Shown here: positions 14,739 through 25,200 of the stretch, in pieces | Numbering within the stretch: position 1 is the stretch's first letter | Layout of the letters: each line of letters begins with the position of its first letter | NCBI GenBank assembly: GCA_963727525.1 | Contig: CAVSGO010000005.1 | Span: forward strand, 352,001 to 416,000 | Direction: 5' to 3' | Source: an uncultured bacterium | Lineage (GTDB): Bacteria; Krumholzibacteriota; Krumholzibacteriia; LZORAL124-64-63 | DNA: 64,000 nucleotides | Notes under the pieces: model-generated | Database searches by the model: none | What the model saw: only the letters and a program-made list of their open reading frames with translations | What the model was told of the DNA's origin: nothing | Program-made: the position numbers and the translations under genes

Positions 14739-15818
14739 TCATTGCTCTCGACGCCGCGCACAGAGGACGCCGGCGCGCTGCAGCAACACCAGCAGACGCG
14801 GCAGGTCGAGAGGTTTGGTGCACATGAAATCAATTGCCGGATCGTCGGCCATCCCGGAGGCGGCCTCGCTGCCCCAGCCCGTCATCAGGATCACCGCGAC
14901 GGCAGGATCGCACCGGCGTAGCTCGGCTGCCACCTCGAGTCCCGAGCGCCCGGGCAGGCGCAGATCCACGAGCACGACGTCGGCGCTACCCGCATCGTAG
15001 CCGGCGAGGGCGTCTGCGGCCGCGCTGGCCACGACCACGGTGTGTCCCTCGGCCTCCAGGCAATCGCGGAGCATATCCCGGACGCTCACCTCGTCGTCCA
15101 CCGCCAGCACGCGCAACCGGCGCGAGTTGATCGCCTCGCCCACGAGAGGCAGAGTCAGGCGGAAGACCGTCCCTTTCGCTCCCGCGCGTACCAGGGTCAG
15201 GTCGCCACCGTGATCGCGCGCTAGCTGACGACAGCCCGCCAGGCCGATGCCATGTCCCCCGCCCTTTGTGCTCACCCCCGCGGTAAAGATCGACGCCGCC
15301 AGGTCCGGGGCCATGCCGGGGCCATCGTCGGCCACGTCGAGCATGACGTCACCCTCATGTTCGCGCCATGAACAGACCACGTGCGCCTGCGCCCCGCCGG
15401 CCTCGAGTGCATTCGTGAAAAGGTTGGCCAGGATCCTGCGGGCCACGAGCTCCGGCACCGCCAATCGCGACGGCGGGCCGTCGCCCGACGCCAGGGTCCC
15501 GACCACAGACGCCCCGGTGCGAGCCGCGACGAGGTCGTGACTCTGTCGCCAGGCCAGCCTCACGACGTCGCCGACGTCGCAGGCTCCGGGATCGGCCACG
15601 ATCGCCTCGTCGCCCAGCAATCCGCGCAGCAACGCCGAGGCATCGCGCGCAGCGGCGGCGATCCTCGCCACGGCCGGTGGCGCCGCGGGGTCGTGCTCCC
15701 AGAGCGATGCCTGGCCGAGAATGACCCACAGGAGCTGATTGACGTCGTGGACGACGGTGCGCACCCGCAGGTCCGGCGCCGAAGATCCCGGTACGCGATC
15801 GGAGGTTGGCTCCGCCAT
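14739..15818 (-). CDS. Hybrid histidine kinase / response regulator with no sensor domain
   Basis: H-box HDVNQLL, N box NLFTNALEA, DDGPGM, STKGGGHGIGL, C-terminal REC (VLAVDDE, VLVDLRLPGRSG, ILMTGW, KP). Confidence 0.9.
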   Translation of the reverse strand: MAEPTSDRVPGSSAPDLRVRTVVHDVNQLLWVILGQASLWEHDPAAPPAVARIAAAARDASALLRGLLGDEAIVADPGACDVGDVVRLAWRQSHDLVAARTGASVVGTLASGDGPPSRLAVPELVARRILANLFTNALEAGGAQAHVVCSWREHEGDVMLDVADDGPGMAPDLAASIFTAGVSTKGGGHGIGLAGCRQLARDHGGDLTLVRAGAKGTVFRLTLPLVGEAINSRRLRVLAVDDEVSVRDMLRDCLEAEGHTVVVASAAADALAGYDAGSADVVLVDLRLPGRSGLEVAAELRRCDPAVAVILMTGWGSEAASGMADDPAIDFMCTKPLDLPRLLVLLQRAGVLCARRREQ

Positions 15819-15910
15819 GGTTCATGCTCCCGTGTATGCGGCATCTTCGCGTGGCAAAGCCGCAATTTACGGGCACACTAGCAAAGGCCCCACCGACCGT
15901 CCATACGCGA

Positions 15911-16996
15911 TCACGTGAGGCACGCCGCGCCACCTCGCAGGGGCACGAGCGGCACGGTGAGGCGAACGACCGGCCATGGCGAGCCGGCCTCAACGTCGAT
16001 TCGACCACCGAGCACGTCGAGAAGACCCGGCGCGACCATGAACCCTATCAGCCGCTGTAGCTCGTCGGCATCGTCGACGGGGTCGCTCAGGCCGGTGCGA
16101 TTGACCCGGTGGCTAGATTCCGCCACACCTTCGAGGCGTAGGTCGAGCGCCAGGCGGGTCAGCTCGGAATCGGCGGCCGCAATCTCGCTCGCGGCGACGG
16201 CAACGGTGAGGTCCGATTGGAAGTAGTGGATCGCGTGGAGCGTTTGACGTAGCAAGCGTCGCCATTGCTCGCGCGCGATGGCGACATTCTTGCCCCAATC
16301 GCCCATCTCCGCGGACCACTCCACCACCACCGCGCTGACGAGCTCATCGATGTCCTGCACGAGTTCGCCGGTCGTCGCGATCGCCGGCGCCGCGTCATTG
16401 TCGACCATCGTCGCATCGATGAAATCGCCGGCCCATTCCACCGTATGCTCCAGGCGCTTGAGATTGCGAAGCGCGATGTCCAAGAGATCGAGCTCTCCAT
16501 TCACAGGCGCCAGCTCGCAACGACGCGCCAGGGTCTGCAACGCCGCGCTGGCGGCGGCGAGCGGCGTCCTCAGCTCGTGATTGAAGAAATGCAAGTGCTG
16601 GCGCAGGTCGCCGGACATCGGCAGGGCGCTGGCCGGACTCGCTTCCACGTCGACGCAGTAGGCCAGAGCCTCCCGCAGACGCGCTTCCATGTCCTCGCCA
16701 TCGGCGAGCACGGCGGCGGCCACGCGGCGCAACGCAACCGGCGCTCCCGGCGCATCGATGAGTACGAGCGGAACCAATGCGTGTTCAGGCAGGGTGACGG
16801 CAGCACCGTTGATCCACGACGTCTCCTCGCTCCACGCCACGATGACGGCCGCGGCTCGCTCCCGGGTCTGTGCCGCGGGGTGACCGCCGGCCGCGGTGAG
16901 AGGCGCGGCCACGAGGCCCCACCCGGAAAGCCAGGAGGACAGACGTCGCATCTGCGTGGGGTCGGCTACGATGAGAACGCGATTCATCGGCACCAT
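15911..16996 (-). CDS. Atypical HisKA protein (pseudo-receiver, HisKA, degenerate ATPase domain)
   Basis: FNHELRTPL H-box; REC-like start MNRVLIVAD; no recognisable N/G1/G2 boxes. Confidence 0.65.
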   Translation of the reverse strand: MVPMNRVLIVADPTQMRRLSSWLSGWGLVAAPLTAAGGHPAAQTRERAAAVIVAWSEETSWINGAAVTLPEHALVPLVLIDAPGAPVALRRVAAAVLADGEDMEARLREALAYCVDVEASPASALPMSGDLRQHLHFFNHELRTPLAAASAALQTLARRCELAPVNGELDLLDIALRNLKRLEHTVEWAGDFIDATMVDNDAAPAIATTGELVQDIDELVSAVVVEWSAEMGDWGKNVAIAREQWRRLLRQTLHAIHYFQSDLTVAVAASEIAAADSELTRLALDLRLEGVAESSHRVNRTGLSDPVDDADELQRLIGFMVAPGLLDVLGGRIDVEAGSPWPVVRLTVPLVPLRGGAACLT

Positions 16997-17198
16997 CCGG
17001 TTGCGGATCGCCCGCGGTGAAGACTGACGGGGAACGATCGGCAAGGGACATGCCATGGGTACGGCCGCGGAATTCCGCGCCCGCCGTTCGCCCCGCCGCG
17101 GCGTTATCGGGTACGACAGGGAATCCCCGCGACGCCTCGTGCACGCGCACGGGTCGCGCCAACCGGATCGGCACTGGCAAAATGCCGTGGCCGTCGCG

Positions 17199-18104
17199 TC
17201 AGCGTCGCTGCGCCGACGGCGGCGCCGGCGGTGTGCCGGCGAATCGCCAGAACACGGCCACCTCGTCGGTGCCCGCCCGGTCGGAGCGCTCGCCGAGATC
17301 GCGCGTGTACGCGACGCCGCACATGTGGCGCGTATGCAGCGGAAACCAGCAGGCCGCGGTGATACGTCGTGTGGCATGACCGCCGAAGCTGCGCTCGAGG
17401 AAGGACACATGGAACGACCGGCCTGTCCGCGGTTCCCAGATCGCTTCCGCGCCGAAGCGGTGGCCATCGGGAAACGCGTCCGGCGCGAGCGCGTCGCCGG
17501 CGGCATCGAGTGTGCTCTCGATACCCGCGCGAAGCGCGATCTCGACCGCGGGCGTCACCCGCCAGCCGCGTCGCAGATCGAGGACGAGGGGCAGACTGGT
17601 CGAGCCGAACGGGTACAGTTCCTCCTTGCCCACGGGCAAGCCGACCAGGATTCCCATGCGCGCGTGCCCCACGAGGGGTAACCGCGCCGGCATGACGATC
17701 CCGATCTGCATCTGGCCCCAGCTCGTGATGTAGCGCGCGCGTGGCCAGGTCGGGTCATCCGCCGTGGATTCCCCCGCGACTTGCGGCCAGCGTTCGAGGG
17801 CCGGCAAATCGTCGCGATCGAAGTGGACGAGGTGCACGCGCAGGAACACGGCGCCTTCGCGACCCGCCGGCAAGGTCGCCATCAGGCCGAGGCGGCTGGC
17901 CGTCCAGTGGGTGAGGTTGTCCCAGGAACGATCGGCCGACACGGTGAGCGCGCGCCGGCTCGCGGTATCGGCCACGGCTGTCCACGGAAGATCGTCGAGG
18001 CGGGGAACCTGGGCCCGCGCCGCGGGTGCCGCGAAGAGCCCGATCAGGATGACGCACGCGGCGCCGGCCCACGCGCAACGCGCGGAACGACGGCGGTGGC
18101 ACAT
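17199..18104 (-). CDS. Hypothetical exported protein, possibly an outer-membrane beta-barrel
   Basis: Signal peptide ending AARA; alternating beta strands, C-terminal EVAVFWRF; start overlaps the upstream stop. Confidence 0.65.
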   Translation of the reverse strand: MCHRRRSARCAWAGAACVILIGLFAAPAARAQVPRLDDLPWTAVADTASRRALTVSADRSWDNLTHWTASRLGLMATLPAGREGAVFLRVHLVHFDRDDLPALERWPQVAGESTADDPTWPRARYITSWGQMQIGIVMPARLPLVGHARMGILVGLPVGKEELYPFGSTSLPLVLDLRRGWRVTPAVEIALRAGIESTLDAAGDALAPDAFPDGHRFGAEAIWEPRTGRSFHVSFLERSFGGHATRRITAACWFPLHTRHMCGVAYTRDLGERSDRAGTDEVAVFWRFAGTPPAPPSAQRR

Positions 18105-18906: not shown

Positions 18907-19049
18907 GGGCTCTCCTCCTTGAGAGGCATCGGTCGTGGGAGCGGATTCCTCCAAGTCCATTGCATGTTAGAACATACACAGATCGGAGTCAAGTCGGCTC
19001 GCTTCAACGATCCGCGGGATCCTGCCTCGAGAGTGACAAAACGCCCGAA

Positions 19050-19892
19050 CTAGGACTCTGCTGTCCGCAGCTTGGCCGCAACCGCACCGTCGATGGCCAC
19101 GACTGGCGCCTCCAACTCGAAGATCTCGCCGAGGGTCGTGCGACCGAGGCGTCGCGCCTCCTGGAGCGCCAGCTTGAGCACACCCGCCGTCGCCGTCGCG
19201 TCGTCGGCGGCGCGGTGCGGACGATCATGGCAAACGCCCAGGCTGACAGCGAGTTCCGGCAGACTGTGGCTGGCGAGATCGGGCCAGAGGGCGCGCGAGA
19301 GGCAGAGCGTACAAAGGCCGGGAACGGCGGGAAATTCGAGATCCCGGCGCATGATCTCCCAGCGGAGGAAAGGCAGGTCGAAGCGGATGTCGTGCGCCAC
19401 GAACACCGACCCGCGCAGCATGCCGAGAAGCTGCGGGGCAACCTCGTCGAGCGTCGGAGCATCGGTCAGATCGGACTCGCGCAGGCCGGTGAGTCGGCTC
19501 ACCCACGGAGGGATGGCGCGTCCGGTGCGCACGCGGCTCGAGAATCCCGGCATGATCCGCTCGCGGCGCAGGCGCGCCACGCCCAGTTCCATGATCTCGT
19601 CGACACCGACCACGCTGCCCGTCGTCTCCAGATCGACCACCGCGAACGTGATCTCACGGGTATCCCGCTGCAGGAATGGCGTCCAGCGGGCGCACCATCG
19701 CTGATCGTGGGTGCGCAGGAAGCGCGGATCGCCCTCGAGCAGCATGCGCACCACGACATGCGCCTCCGGCATCTCGTGCCGCTGGGGGCCGAAGAGTCGG
19801 CGGGCAATGCAATGCGTCTGGACAGGTCGGTCGATCTCGAGCAGATAACGGTGCGCAAGATCGCGGAGCTGTTTCAGGTCGTTGATCGGCAT
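19050..19892 (-). CDS. DEDDh 3'-5' exonuclease (DnaQ/PolC-exo-like) with N-terminal helical extension
   Basis: VVDLETTG, FVAHDIRFD, HRAADDA. Confidence 0.9.
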   Translation of the reverse strand: MPINDLKQLRDLAHRYLLEIDRPVQTHCIARRLFGPQRHEMPEAHVVVRMLLEGDPRFLRTHDQRWCARWTPFLQRDTREITFAVVDLETTGSVVGVDEIMELGVARLRRERIMPGFSSRVRTGRAIPPWVSRLTGLRESDLTDAPTLDEVAPQLLGMLRGSVFVAHDIRFDLPFLRWEIMRRDLEFPAVPGLCTLCLSRALWPDLASHSLPELAVSLGVCHDRPHRAADDATATAGVLKLALQEARRLGRTTLGEIFELEAPVVAIDGAVAAKLRTAES

Positions 19893-19923
19893 GGCGTCAT
19901 TATAGCACAGGGGTATCGCGTGT

Positions 19924-20793
19924 TCAATCAGGGCCCGGAGCCGCCCCCGTCAGCAGGGGACGGGCGTCCTGGCCATAGCCCAGACACTCGAGGGTCTCCA
20001 CCTTCGCCTGGGGCGGCGGCGGGGAAAACCGGGGGCTCGCTGGCGTCATGACCGACTCGGCGCGCATCCGCTCGGCGGCAAACGCGAGGCCCAGCAACGG
20101 GATATCGTCCGAAACCGCCGCGTTGACCTCGATCGTGGTCATCTGGACCAGGGTGCCGGTGGCGAACGTGGCAGCCTGGGTATCGGCCGCGGCGAACGCG
20201 AACTGGTGGCATGTGAGCGATCGATCCTGGATCACGCGGACGGTGGTTCCCTGATCGGCCACCGACTCGGCCTGAAAGTCCCCGCGCAACGCGTCCGTGA
20301 CCAGGGGATCGGCCCGCCACTGCGCGCCGGTCAGGTCGGTGGGGACTCCGTCCTGCCACCGCTCGACGGCCACGACGGTGTCCAGTAACTGGCCCCGTCG
20401 CATGAGGATGGTATCGGCAACCCACACCCGCACGCCCTCTCCCGGCACCGGCTCCCGCTCACCAGGTTCGGCGAGTTCCTGCACCGGGACGATCTCGAGG
20501 AGCCAGCCCGCATCGGGGTGACCCGGCCCGGGCGCGAGGCACTGGATACGCAGCAACTCTCTCTCGCGGCGACCACCCGCCAGGCTCTGGCGCTGGTATT
20601 CCACCCAGGAGCCGACCTTCAGGCGGAGCGGGATTTGCGGCTGACGCCACAGGGTGAACAGGTCGAGGGCACGGGCGGGTACCGACGCGAACAGCAACGC
20701 GGACACGAGCAGGGCCGGCAGCGCATGCCGCCGGCCCCATCGCCATGCCCGAGCCCCATTCTCAGTGTTTGATCTTCTCCCAGTAGCTCGCAT
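19924..20793 (-). CDS. Hypothetical exported protein; start uncertain
   Basis: Signal-like LPALLVSALLFASVPARA; lies directly downstream of the selenoprotein gene. Confidence 0.65.
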   Translation of the reverse strand: MRATGRRSNTENGARAWRWGRRHALPALLVSALLFASVPARALDLFTLWRQPQIPLRLKVGSWVEYQRQSLAGGRRERELLRIQCLAPGPGHPDAGWLLEIVPVQELAEPGEREPVPGEGVRVWVADTILMRRGQLLDTVVAVERWQDGVPTDLTGAQWRADPLVTDALRGDFQAESVADQGTTVRVIQDRSLTCHQFAFAAADTQAATFATGTLVQMTTIEVNAAVSDDIPLLGLAFAAERMRAESVMTPASPRFSPPPPQAKVETLECLGYGQDARPLLTGAAPGPD

Positions 20794-22150
20794 AGTCGAA
20801 ATCGGTATCCTTCGTCTTGTCGTAACACGGGCGCTTGCTGTTGTCATGGCAGCCGGAGCAGGACTCACGGGCGACCTTGAGCCACGACGCGTCACGCTCG
20901 TGCTCGGTACCGTAGCCATGGCAGGACTCGCACTGCACGTTGGTCAGGTGCTTGTTCGGACCGTTTTCCTCGTACCCGCCGTAGTACTGGTACCCCGTGG
21001 TGTGGCACGTGAGACACTGCGGCTCAGTTTCCAGGGCCTGACCACGCAGGGTATTGAACGCCTGGGCATGCTCCGTCTTGCGCCAGGACTCGTAGGCATC
21101 CGTATGGCACGAGCGGCAGTTGACCAGGCCGAGGAACTGCTCGTCCTTGGAACCCTTGTCTCGCGGCCACTTGGCGCGTTCCTCCGCCTTCGCCTGCTCC
21201 TCGTGCTCCTTGAAGGCCGTGACCTTGCCCGCCATGTCCTTGTCGTCGGCGATCTGGTCGTCCAGGCTGGTGACGTGCACCTGCACCGCCATCACCTTGC
21301 CGTCGGACGGCTCCACCTGCAGATCCGCACGCCCGATGAAGCGACCCTCGTAGACGGCGGCCAGCATGACCGCGTCCTGGACGATGCGCTCGGTCTCGTA
21401 GCTGCGGAACGTGTGGCCCACCACCACGACATCGATGCCCTTCACTTCCTTCAGGATGTTCTCGGTGCCGTTGTCGCCCATGTGGCTGAGCAGCACCACC
21501 GTGTCGCACTTCTCGCGCAACTTCGGAATGACATCCCGCAGGGCGGCGATCGGATCATCCACACGGAATTGAGCCTCGCTCGCATCCATCGTGATGATCT
21601 TCTGCTGCGGATCAAGGATACTGACGATGCCGAACCTGATGCCGTTCTTCTCCACGACGAGGTACTCCGGCAGGATGAGCTCGCCGGAACCTGGATCGTG
21701 AACGTTGGCGCTCGTGAACGGCAGCTTGTATTTCTCGATCATCTGCTTCAGAAATCCGAGACCGTAGTTCAGATCCTGCTCGCCGAGACCGATCCCGTCG
21801 TAACCGAAGGCGCCGGTCTGCTCACAGAGGAACTCCGTCTGGTTCCGTTCCTGCCGCGTACGCTTTCCAAACAGATCTCCGGCGTCAAGAGTCAGCGTCT
21901 CGACGCCTTCGTCCCAAACAGTGTTGAAAAAGGTGGCCCTCCGGGCCAACCCGCCACGCTGATGGGAGTGTCAGCCACAGGGGTCGATCTTGCCCTTGAC
22001 GTCGCTGGTGTAGATGAGCGAGACCGGCTTCCAGTTGACGTCGGCGGCGTGCGCCACACGTACGGGCAGCAGACTCGGCACGATCAGCAGCGCCGCCAGG
22101 AGCAAGCCCAGCCCCCCGCTCGCGGCAATGCGTCGGTTGGGGTGCATCAT
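20762..22150 (-). CDS. Secreted UshA-like (metallophosphoesterase-fold) selenoprotein fused to a tetraheme c554-type cytochrome; Sec at TGA 21971-21973
   Basis: ORFs 21971-22186 and 20762-21949 are in the same frame and join as ...KGKIDPCG-U-HSHQRGGLARRAT. Signal peptide, LDAGDLF, LLSHMG, VVGHTF; four CxxCH motifs (CRSCH, CLTCH, CESCH, CSGCH). Confidence 0.85.
21932..21951 (-). promoter_or_regulatory. Bacterial SECIS-like hairpin
   Basis: mRNA GG-U-UGGCCC-GGA-GGGCCA-CC starts 19 nt after the UGA; bulged U and G-initiated apical loop 28 nt from the UGA. Confidence 0.65.
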
Positions 22151-22285
22151 GCTTCCTCTTGAGCGGGGTTGTGTTTTACGGCTCAAACGGCCGCACCAGC
22201 CGCTGAACCGGCCGGCGTCGCGAAAAGTTCCAAGGAAACCGAAGTATACCCCGGCTTGCAGAGACCGGCAAGCGACGGTTCTCTC

Positions 22286-25200
22286 TCAATAGAGCCCGCC
22301 GGAGGCGAGGCCGCCGGCGCTCCCCAGCAGGTCCTCCTTGCCCTGGGTGAGCTTCAGCTCGGGGATCGCCTTGAGATAGAACCGGAAACCGAACTGTGAG
22401 TCGTTGACACCGGCGAGGACGCGGTAGAACTCGAGTCGCCAGCAGTGCAGGTCACGCTGCAGGCGATAGGTCTGCCGCGTGGTGGCGCCGGCACTCAGGT
22501 CGAAAGAGCTGCTGTAGCTCAGCTCCCAGCCATGGGTCAAGAAAGCCGACACGCTCAGATTCGCCCGCGCGGTGGACGCGCCGCCGGCCTGGCGCGAGTA
22601 GGTGAGCGATCCGTTCAGATTCCAGGGGATCAGACGTCCGCCCTCGGTGGCGTCGCGCTCGGCGCCTCCGGATTCCCCGCGCCCGGCGTTGGGCTCGTCG
22701 AAACCGCCGTAGAAATCGTCCTGCACGAACGCGTCCTGGTCGGCCGGATTGGCGAGGCTGTCGGCGACGGCGGTCGACGAATCGGGAACCATGGCCTCGA
22801 GCTGATCGATCGCCGCGTTGCGTTTCTGCTCGCGTTCCTTGCCCAGCCATCCCGTATCGAACCGCCCACGGAACCCGAAGGCGTAGTTGAGCTGGGTGCT
22901 GATGATGCGGCGGCGGTACGGGTCGATCGTATTCGACATGCCGAGATTGAGATTGCGGTTCGAACCTGGCTTGATGGTGATACGGCTGGACACATTGTTC
23001 CACATCCGCCCGCTGGGCGCCTTCGGCGTGTAACCGGTGCCCATGGTCCAATCGATCAGGCCGTCGAGCTTTTTCAGCGTCTCGCCGCTGTCGGTGGCCC
23101 CGGCGGCGTACTTCACGTCGAAACGGTTGCTCATCGAGAACGAGTAGCTCGAGCGCCGATCCTGCTTGCTGCCGAGCTGCGGCTGGAACGAGCCCGACGC
23201 CGAGAGCCCCAGCGTGTGGCGGATCGCGCGTAGGGCGCCCACGCGTGCAGGAAAGACGCCGTAGAGGGTGGTGGTCACCCCCGCATTGTAGGCGAGGCTC
23301 GGCCGTGTGACCTCGTGCACCGAATCGATGGGCGCATAGTAGCCCACAGTGTCGGTATCGGAGGTGACGGTGTAGTAATCGCGTCCGGTCACCACGTCGC
23401 GCTGCCACGACTGGCTGCCCGAGGCGCCGAAGCTCGGATTCAGGAAGCCGATCCGCGGCGGCCGCACCCGTAGCGACCAGTTACCCGAGGCCGCGTACGT
23501 GTGCAGGTCGGTTCGCTCACGCTTGCGCACGTAGTTGCGCATCGAATAGCTCTGCGTCAGGTACGTGTTGCGGGCCAGTTCGCCCAGCATGCTGCCCTTC
23601 TGCCCCGCCGGCAACGCCGGCGCCAGGGCGATCTGGTTGGGGCTGATGCTCAGCGAAGGCAGCGTCATGTTGTAGACCTCGTTGTTGGACAACGGGTCGT
23701 TGTCGTCGGCGTTCAGCTGCTCCGTGCGGTCAGCGTTGAGGCTCATGCTGGCCCAATTGAACTTACGGCTCACGAACATCGTCGACTTGCGATTCTGATC
23801 GAGGATGTCGCGCCCGACGTTTGAGTTGAGGTCGTTGCTGGTGAGCGTGCGACTCGCCATCTTCACGCTGGCCCGGAACGTGTAGTCGTCGAAGAGGTGC
23901 GGTTGGTTATGATTCGCGGCGAGCTGCCACTCCTTGAGATCCTCGCCGGCACGCAGGCTCACCCGCCGCGTGTAGTCGATGCCCCCGCTGAAGGCATAAC
24001 GCTTGTTGTAGCGGTTGCGCAGCCGTGTGGCGATCTCCGAATGCTCGTTGTAGTCGACCTCGAACGTGAAGTCCGTGTAATCGTTCGTCGCCCAGAAATA
24101 GCCAAGATCGCGGATGTAGCGCCCCGTGCGCGATGACCAGCCCACATTGAAATTCGGGAAGAGGATTCCCGAACGCCGCCCCTGTTTCAGCGACTTGAAA
24201 TAGAAGGGCAGAGCGAATACGGGTACCTTACCCACTTTCATCACGATCGGCGCCGCCACCACCTGGTCGCCGATGCGCATCTTCATCTTGTCGGCCCAGA
24301 AGTGATAGTGGGGCCGCTCGAGATCGCAGCTCGTCATCTTGCCGCCGTGGATCTTGAGACTGCCATCGGGATAGCGGTAGATCTCATCGCCGACGTAGTA
24401 GTAGTTGTCGAACGTGGTGATGCCGTGTTTCACGGCGCCGGTCTTGTTGGCGAAATCGTACCCCATGCGCTGGCCGACGATCGTCTCGTTCTGCTCGAGC
24501 AGCGGCTGGCCAGACGCATAGAGCTCGCGGGTGCGGGTATCGAGCTGAACCTCCTGGGCCGTGAGCGTCATGTCACCGTACACGAGCCGGGCGTCCTGGC
24601 TCACATCGATGGTCATGTGCGCGAGGTCGAAGGCCACCGCTTGACCGCTATAGTTCACGGCCTCCTCATGGGCCGTGAAGTCACCGCGAAGCGCGGCGGA
24701 ATCGGCGATGGCCGCGACGAGCGAGTCCGCCACCGCAGTCGTTTCGACGGCGGCGGTCGTATCGACGGCGGCGGAGTCGGACGCGGCCTTGCCCCTCATG
24801 GCGGCGATCCGGGCGAAGTGGTAGACACCGCTCATCGAGCCGCGCACGTTCACCTTGCGCACGCGGCCGCCATGGAAGTCGATGACCAGCGTATCGCCAT
24901 TCACGTCGTTGAACGCCACCTCCTCATCGACATCGGTGGGCACGTACACGCTGTGCGCGTTGCCGATCACCACGGTACTTGACACCTGCTTGTTCTGCAG
25001 ATGCACGGTGATGCTGTCTCCGTCCACCGTATCCAGGGCCGGCAAGCCGGTATAGACGGCCGCCAGGCTGTCCGGGTCGCCATCCTCCATGTGTGCATCG
25101 CCCACCAGCACCACCCGCACGAGCTGGCCGTGGAGATAGAAGAACGTGATCTCGTCCCCCCGCATGCGGCTGCCCTCGTCGAGCGACACCTCGGGGTGGC

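Follow-up and report, generated by a model that had tools for sequence, protein, structure and literature searches.

UshA-like proteins carrying a CxU motif have been listed as predicted selenoproteins since 2008, and the family is tabulated as such under COG0737 (PMC2398784, PMC9312934, PMC13188914); a function was not found in the literature searched, which held no functional study of this family. DUF1573 is likewise a listed selenoprotein family, with a U-G-C motif. The best experimental analogy for the protein described here is MccSep, whose Cys-ligated heme 2 acts together with Sec in the cleavage of S-S bonds (PMC13510729). As for disulfide pathways, it has been shown experimentally that MauE replaces DsbB by means of a CGC redox loop (bioRxiv 10.64898/2026.03.05.709764). 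The main text of that preprint mentions neither UshA, nor DUF1573, nor cytochromes, and our literature search returned no paper connecting the UshA-like family with DUF1573 or MauE.

We analysed a window of 64,000 nucleotides, that is, the whole stretch of DNA considered here, from an uncultured bacterium of the class Krumholzibacteriia (GCA_963727525.1, contig CAVSGO010000005.1, positions 352,001 to 416,000), in which a first-pass annotation had pointed to a hidden selenoprotein gene. With Cys in place of Sec, the window protein scored 277.3 bits against the model NF041198 (UshA_like_PCGU, UshA-like (seleno)protein; cut-off 275), and this agrees with the earlier statement that it falls in a recognised yet functionally uncharacterised selenoprotein family. 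In a six-frame search the two pieces of the gene were scored separately, each under the NF041198 cut-off. The model of the UshA-like family 2, NF049981, gave 48.1 bits, under its cut-off of 140, and has the motif CxxU where the window protein has CxU. The closest named relatives are labelled Candidatus Krumholzibacteria, and the family is present throughout the host class. The window protein belongs, then, to an already catalogued family and is not new; as a gene call it is an ordinary case of a family that gene callers mis-split. The same holds for the fusion to hemes: selenoprotein nature and UshA-like identity stood as first proposed, and the fusion is no novelty, since positions 346–513 of NF041198 align with the heme domain, which is therefore already within the family model.

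The internal TGA codon and its decoding

Translation of the gene gave one frame of which the TGA at codon 60 is the sole internal stop (sequence context DPCG*HSHQRGGLARRAT); the two open reading frames first noticed on either side of it are thus the parts of a single 462-codon frame (Table 1). Both the hydrophobic N-terminal leader and the YTSD strand lie 5' of the TGA in the translation, where they had been placed initially; translation may in fact begin at a second ATG, at 22147. Standard ORF calling yields a 395-aa product that starts 3' of the TGA. The expectation that annotation would split such genes is borne out by the databases: 117 of the best 120 proteins are fragments of 351–402 aa beginning after the UGA, and a motif test found the N-terminal C-x-C absent from 118 of these 120.

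Table 1. Positions, in the window, of the features of the UshA-like gene.
Feature	Position	Strand	Basis
Full gene, 462 codons and stop, internal TGA read through	20762..22150	-	translation of the window
Probable signal peptide, residues 1–35, A-H-A at its end	22046..22150	-	read by eye
Cys58-Gly59-Sec60, TGA at 21973-21971	21971..21979	-	60 loci and 98-row alignment
SECIS hairpin, apical loop CGGAG at 21943-21939, 27 nt past the UGA	21932..21952	-	folding, conservation, consensus criteria
5'-nucleotidase-type metallophosphoesterase fold and linker helix, about residues 40–322, motifs remodelled	21185..22033	-	alignments, model, structure match
Candidate single-metal ligands D92, E124, H223, H246 (span)	21413..21877	-	120 close relatives
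Cytochrome c554-like tetraheme domain	20765..21154	-	PF13435; 1bvb by sequence and fold
Match to a sigma-70-like promoter, in the interval that follows lptD	22243..22271	-	consensus match only

Homologues use a very restricted set of codons at this position. Among 60 motif-bearing loci, a count that takes in the window itself and near-duplicates, we found TGA in 37, TGT in 17, TGC in 6 and no other codon, so that the proposed comparison with Cys-containing homologues returned only TGA or Cys (23 loci); a 61st locus examined was fragmentary and lacked the motif, and we excluded two heme-only loci. In the 98-member alignment (A2), Cys58 was present in 95 members and Cys or Sec at position 60 in 97. 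A quick tree, for which 35 of the 98 alignment rows were used, placed the TGA forms in two lineages.

The hairpin that had been noticed 19 nt past the TGA does begin its upper stem at the 19th base. The four published consensus criteria for bacterial SECIS elements are a loop of 3–9 nt with G in the first two places, a stem of 4–16 bp, a spacing of 16–37 nt and an MFE of at most −7.5 (PMC13188914); the hairpin, with the loop CGGAG, a spacing of 27 nt and an energy of −13.9 kcal/mol, agrees with all four. The stability of the hairpin, considered over 84 nt, was within chance (z = −1.25): of 400 ordinary TGA stops sampled in the same genome, 22 were followed by an equally stable one. Stability was therefore dropped as stand-alone evidence. 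Conservation of the hairpin exceeds chance. It is kept in 35 TGA-bearing relatives with a pairing of 87%, compared to 23–62% in slid controls, and two-sided changes were observed in 11 cells, a count that 0 of 500 shuffles reached (shuffled mean 4.0) and that is not to be read as a probability because the 35 sequences share kinship. Moreover, the arginine codon AGG is used in the loop of 20 of the 35 sequences, compared to 3% of the Arg codons in eight genes of the window: synonymous choices at the SECIS loop are constrained. An Rfam search gave no family-level match.

A check of the host for the sel genes, suggested at the outset, found selA, selC and selD all intact. On the other hand, selB, which scores above its profile cut-off, is frameshifted as assembled, its 3' half being split over three reading frames (host genome G000, G000:C5:675400-677600, minus strand), and we read these frame changes as candidate assembly indels. 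SelA was found in 100 of 101 genomes of the host class. The state of selB would fit an alternative in which the TGA genuinely ends translation, or arose by a sequencing error, and the host has only a split or dead gene. Against it stand the identical TGA in 24 of 24 same-family genomes sampled, the occurrence of nothing other than TGA or Cys at this codon, the co-variation of the SECIS and the presence of in-frame TGA codons in selD itself and in other genes, and we regard it as extremely improbable. The in-frame TGA is almost certainly read as selenocysteine, yielding one secreted four-heme protein.

Two side observations concern the same elements. A run of T behind the SECIS hairpin makes window 21948-21934 (minus strand) the sole terminator-like site within 19000-23000; most relatives have fewer T at this place. 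Further candidate in-frame Sec codons of the host genome lie at G000 C5:627511, C6:186092, C7:314977/312762/310558, C7:1825073 and C8:245333, and they comprise two U-x-x-C cases, three tandem W-U-V-Y-C genes and one preceding an eight-heme cytochrome; one more candidate is found in a G-F-G-U-S-G-P protein, which is presumably HesB-like.

Two domains, a remodelled metal site and four hemes

The AlphaFold2 model of residues 40–462 (pLDDT 93, pTM 0.88) has an N-terminal domain that superimposes on the 5'-nucleotidase-type structure 2z1a with Z 34.2 (rmsd 2.5, 279 aligned residues), the value for the 5'-nucleotidases, compared to Z 32.0 for SoxB; the structure search also assigned a calcineurin-like fold. 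Alignments with 5'-nucleotidases revealed altered catalytic motifs, DxH being changed to DxK and, as noticed from the start, GNHE to GEQD, and in the 98-row alignment the seven most frequent residues at the catalytic position do not include His. A Pfam search gave no match of the window protein to the 5'-nucleotidase C-terminal domain PF02872, the SoxB model TIGR04486 scored 79.3 bits, far under its cut-off of 550, and the score with the UshA profile was also far under the cut-off. The candidate metal ligands D92, E124, H223 and H246 are kept in 114, 120, 120 and 119 of the best 120 relatives, and, since they are near-invariant in this set, one metal site may survive and is probably retained in the clade of the window protein, as judged from residue conservation. 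Across the wider family the same ligands are kept in 59–65 of 98 members, where the Cys pair is near-invariant. Thus, the initial description of a probably non-hydrolytic scaffold is supported by the DxK and GEQD changes, with the refinement that the metal site is only half lost in this clade.

The four CxxCH motifs announced downstream were located at 21118, 21016, 20932 and 20860, corresponding to residues 345, 379, 407 and 431. Residues 294–423 of the model match chain residues 1–179 of cytochrome c554 (1bvb) with Z 11.5 (rmsd 2.7, 128 aligned). Distal-type histidines His361, His417 and His462 are conserved in 98, 96 and 91 of 98 members; as three distal His serve four hemes, the sequence leaves one heme apparently open, without a sixth His ligand, which on the c554 ligand map we take to be heme 2. 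The literature search returned no passage with the ligand residue numbers of c554.

A subclade carries a short insert with a cysteine, Cys442 (window 20827-20825), which sits past the last heme motif and co-occurs with Cys215 in the closest 120 relatives (44/46 vs 7/74). The two cysteines may form a disulfide between the domains, Cys442 may ligate a heme, or the co-occurrence may stem from common descent. Hemeless members, with either Sec or Cys, are common, so hemes are optional for the UshA-like domain, and the wiring of Cys/Sec to four hemes, as first described, stays a putative feature. The host itself has two hemeless paralogues, C-H-C and C-D-C (G000:C7:2326616-2327575 and G000:C6:135760-136701); the former terminates at a TAG, behind which stands a short remnant similar to the beginning of the heme linker. 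A stand-alone exported c554-like tetraheme gene (G000:C5:719119-719673) is a possible partner of these paralogues.

Gene neighbourhood, candidate partners and disulfide pathways

The gene order lptD, UshA-like gene, unknown exported protein and DnaQ-like gene is kept across the taxonomic family, and the housekeeping neighbours (lptD, folC, dnaQ-like) do not form a respiratory cluster; the local order offers no functional hint. Neighbours were compared by targeted searches, all-against-all clustering of the ORFs being too noisy. The exported-looking protein has 289 aa, no known family and lies at window 20793-19924 (minus strand); it adjoins the UshA-like gene in 24/24 same-family loci, and its inferred start overlaps the end of that gene by 32 nt. 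Four other loci (L014, L017, L057, L072) have a gene judged by eye to be HU-like between lptD and the UshA-like gene, which is absent from the corresponding interval here (22150-22286). Elsewhere in the window (14739-17506, minus strand) a hybrid histidine kinase is apparently divided between two ORFs, the first with the HisKA domain and the second with ATPase and receiver, which may be due to a frameshift.

More information came from fusions and from other loci. In a sample of 24 long or two-stretch homologues chosen from 150 matches, a fusion to DUF1573 was seen in 7 and one to a DsbA-like domain in 6, of which 3 score under the Pfam DSBA cut-off. In 22 of 23 Cys-type loci, which come from about four lineages, the gene immediately upstream encodes a DUF1573 protein whose C-x-C is invariant, compared to 0 of 7 TGA-type loci of the same set (one of them with a short flank), and DUF1573 is not adjacent to the UshA-like gene in the window either. 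In many members of the host class the DUF1573 gene itself contains a TGA. The host has an operon (G000:C7:272421-274363, minus strand) of DUF1573 (C-G-C), a rhodanese-like gene and MauE, whose order is kept in most of the class loci inspected, and a second MauE fused to a DsbA-like thioredoxin domain (G000:C6:257581-259143, minus strand); hemeless UshA-like members were found directly upstream of MauE in 2 of seven outside loci inspected. Homology between DUF1573 and the UshA-like domain was ruled out (probability 1%) and, because the domains are not homologous, their C-x-C loops are separate inventions.

Complex prediction was carried out with a natural Cys-type pair from another host (locus L021), with our own alignments and the hemes included, unlike the calibration set. 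The pair scored 0.37 with DUF1573, compared to 0.16 for the best control, with at least 92% of contacts in agreement between runs and a partner pLDDT of at least 85. Among the calibration pairs, 116 of 157 solved ones and 2 of 215 mismatched ones attained the mark set for the complex score, those at 0.60 or under being only 18 solved pairs and both mismatches. The prediction gives weak support to a putative UshA-like/DUF1573 complex.

In the 101 genomes of the host class we found DsbB in 0, VKOR in 2, MauE in 100 and DUF1573 in 90; in one family of the class, the full UshA-like protein was present in 10/10 genomes and DUF1573 in only 3/10. Among 151 genomes of Acidobacteriota, in which kin are not independent and the thresholds were our own choice, MauE occurred in 22 of the 26 with the heme-fused form, picked by eye among the matches listed (22 weaker ones outside), vs 75 of the 125 others. 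VKOR was found in 4/26 vs 54/125, so that the heme-fused form tended to accompany MauE and to avoid VKOR, and DUF1573 showed a weak association (17/26 vs 56/125). Without the unpublished genomes G250, G128 and G153, the figures were 21/25 vs 73/123 for MauE, 4/25 vs 54/123 for VKOR and 17/25 vs 55/123 for DUF1573. The idea that the UshA-like protein itself replaces DsbB was dropped, given MauE in 100/101 genomes and its published role; with MauE and the MauE-DsbA fusion already in the genome, there is no pathway gap to fill. A crude even-cysteine test, carried out two times on gene calls of our own with signal peptides filtered heuristically, counted 170 even and 185 odd among exported proteins of the host genome, vs 361 and 385 among cytoplasmic ones. 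There was no bias, and general oxidative folding is thus not evident.

Proposed function and comparison with known systems

We propose, with a probability of about one half, that the window protein is a thiol-disulfide oxidoreductase of the periplasm, coupled to hemes and built on a non-hydrolytic 5'-nucleotidase fold, and that it probably shuttles electrons between its hemes and protein thiols outside the cytoplasm. The exported selenoprotein would couple two-electron thiol chemistry to one-electron heme chemistry: Cys58/Sec60 would exchange thiols with partners, the likeliest being DsbA-like domains and the Ig-like DUF1573, whose loop is C-x-C or U-G-C, and electrons would then enter the heme chain at the heme that has no sixth His ligand. 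The preferred direction would be oxidation, from a partner dithiol to the selenosulfide, the hemes and finally periplasmic cytochromes, and the UshA-like protein may provide the MauE-type CGC pathway with a soluble arm linked to hemes. The oxidising direction, which we favour only slightly, is the weakest step. We counted in favour of thiol redox chemistry the Cys/Sec pair, kept while the metal ligands decay family-wide, and in favour of exchange with protein partners the fusions to DUF1573 and DsbA-like domains together with the upstream DUF1573 genes. Also on this side we placed the recoding, the MauE genes next to two hemeless members, the distribution of DsbB, VKOR and MauE in the host class and of VKOR and MauE in Acidobacteriota, and the complex score; the hemeless members, the non-adjacent DUF1573 at TGA-type loci, its rarity in one family of the class and weak association in Acidobacteriota, the missing even-cysteine excess, the frameshifted selB and the existing MauE were counted against the oxidoreductase. 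The partner evidence makes the function concretely testable.

The main rival is an MccSep-like reductase of small-molecule S-S bonds or Se-oxyanions, in which Cys58 (or Cys442) would ligate the open heme 2 and Sec60 would attack the substrate, be it polysulfide, selenite or a small disulfide, with electrons supplied by the hemes. MccSep does pair a His/Cys heme 2 with Sec (PMC13510729), the heme-domain profile matches it weakly (E 7e-4), and a rhodanese-like gene stands in the DUF1573-MauE operon; nevertheless, the gene has housekeeping neighbours instead of a respiratory cluster around it, some members lack hemes and the fusions indicate protein substrates, so we judge this reductase unlikely. 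In a second rival, Cys/Sec and D92/E124/H223/H246 would bind or pass a soft metal, Cu or similar, together with DUF1573, with the hemes setting its redox state. C-x-C pairs can bind Cu(I), and the four residues are near-invariant in the 120 close relatives, but about a third of the wider family has lost them and kept the Cys pair, and neighbour scans of the window found no recognisable metal transporter or copper gene, which makes metal handling quite unlikely. We consider very unlikely a still-active hydrolase of phosphoesters or, like SoxB, of S-sulfonates, with Cys/Sec and the hemes as a redox switch: the fold is nearest to the 5'-nucleotidases and SoxB and part of the metal site is kept, but both DxH and GNHE are altered, the catalytic His is not among the commonest residues, the C-terminal domain is missing and the UshA and SoxB scores are far under their cut-offs.

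The oxidoreductase might also belong to something larger. A rather unlikely extension is that the family is the hub, connected to hemes, of an as yet undescribed redox relay of the envelope built on C-G-C/U loops, core to uncultured classes in which DsbB was not found, whose members would be the UshA-like/c554 protein, the Ig-fold DUF1573, MauE and DsbA-like proteins. If so, periplasmic dithiols would give their electrons not to quinone but to c-type hemes, via Cys/Sec over an open c554 heme, and a heme-based route of thiol-disulfide control would be added in bacteria without DsbB and VKOR.

Compared with known systems, the window protein resembles MccSep (ExtKL), the Geobacter polysulfide reductase, in being a periplasmic multiheme selenoprotein with Cys and Sec; by contrast, MccSep has five hemes, its Sec in a C-terminal Ig-like domain and no phosphoesterase fold (PMC13510729), and the window protein has four hemes and Sec at residue 60. 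With the MauE pathway it shares the C-G-C redox loop and the co-occurrence where DsbB was not found, but MauE is a membrane protein and predicted quinone user (bioRxiv 10.64898/2026.03.05.709764) and is not homologous to the window protein. Cytochrome c554 of Nitrosomonas europaea (1BVB; PF13435) has four similarly spaced CxxCH motifs and the same fold, whereas here the heme domain is fused to a Sec-bearing one; the c554 CycA profile gave 48.6 bits, far under its cut-off of 400, and no link to ammonia oxidation was seen. UshA and SoxB share the N-terminal fold and the linker helix, with the differences that the catalytic motifs are changed and that hemes replace the substrate-binding domain. 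With the NF041198 family, finally, the window protein has in common the score above the cut-off, by a margin of only 2.3 bits, the P-C-G-U motif and both domains within the model; there is no difference in kind, and what distinguishes the subclade that includes the window protein is the short insert with Cys442.
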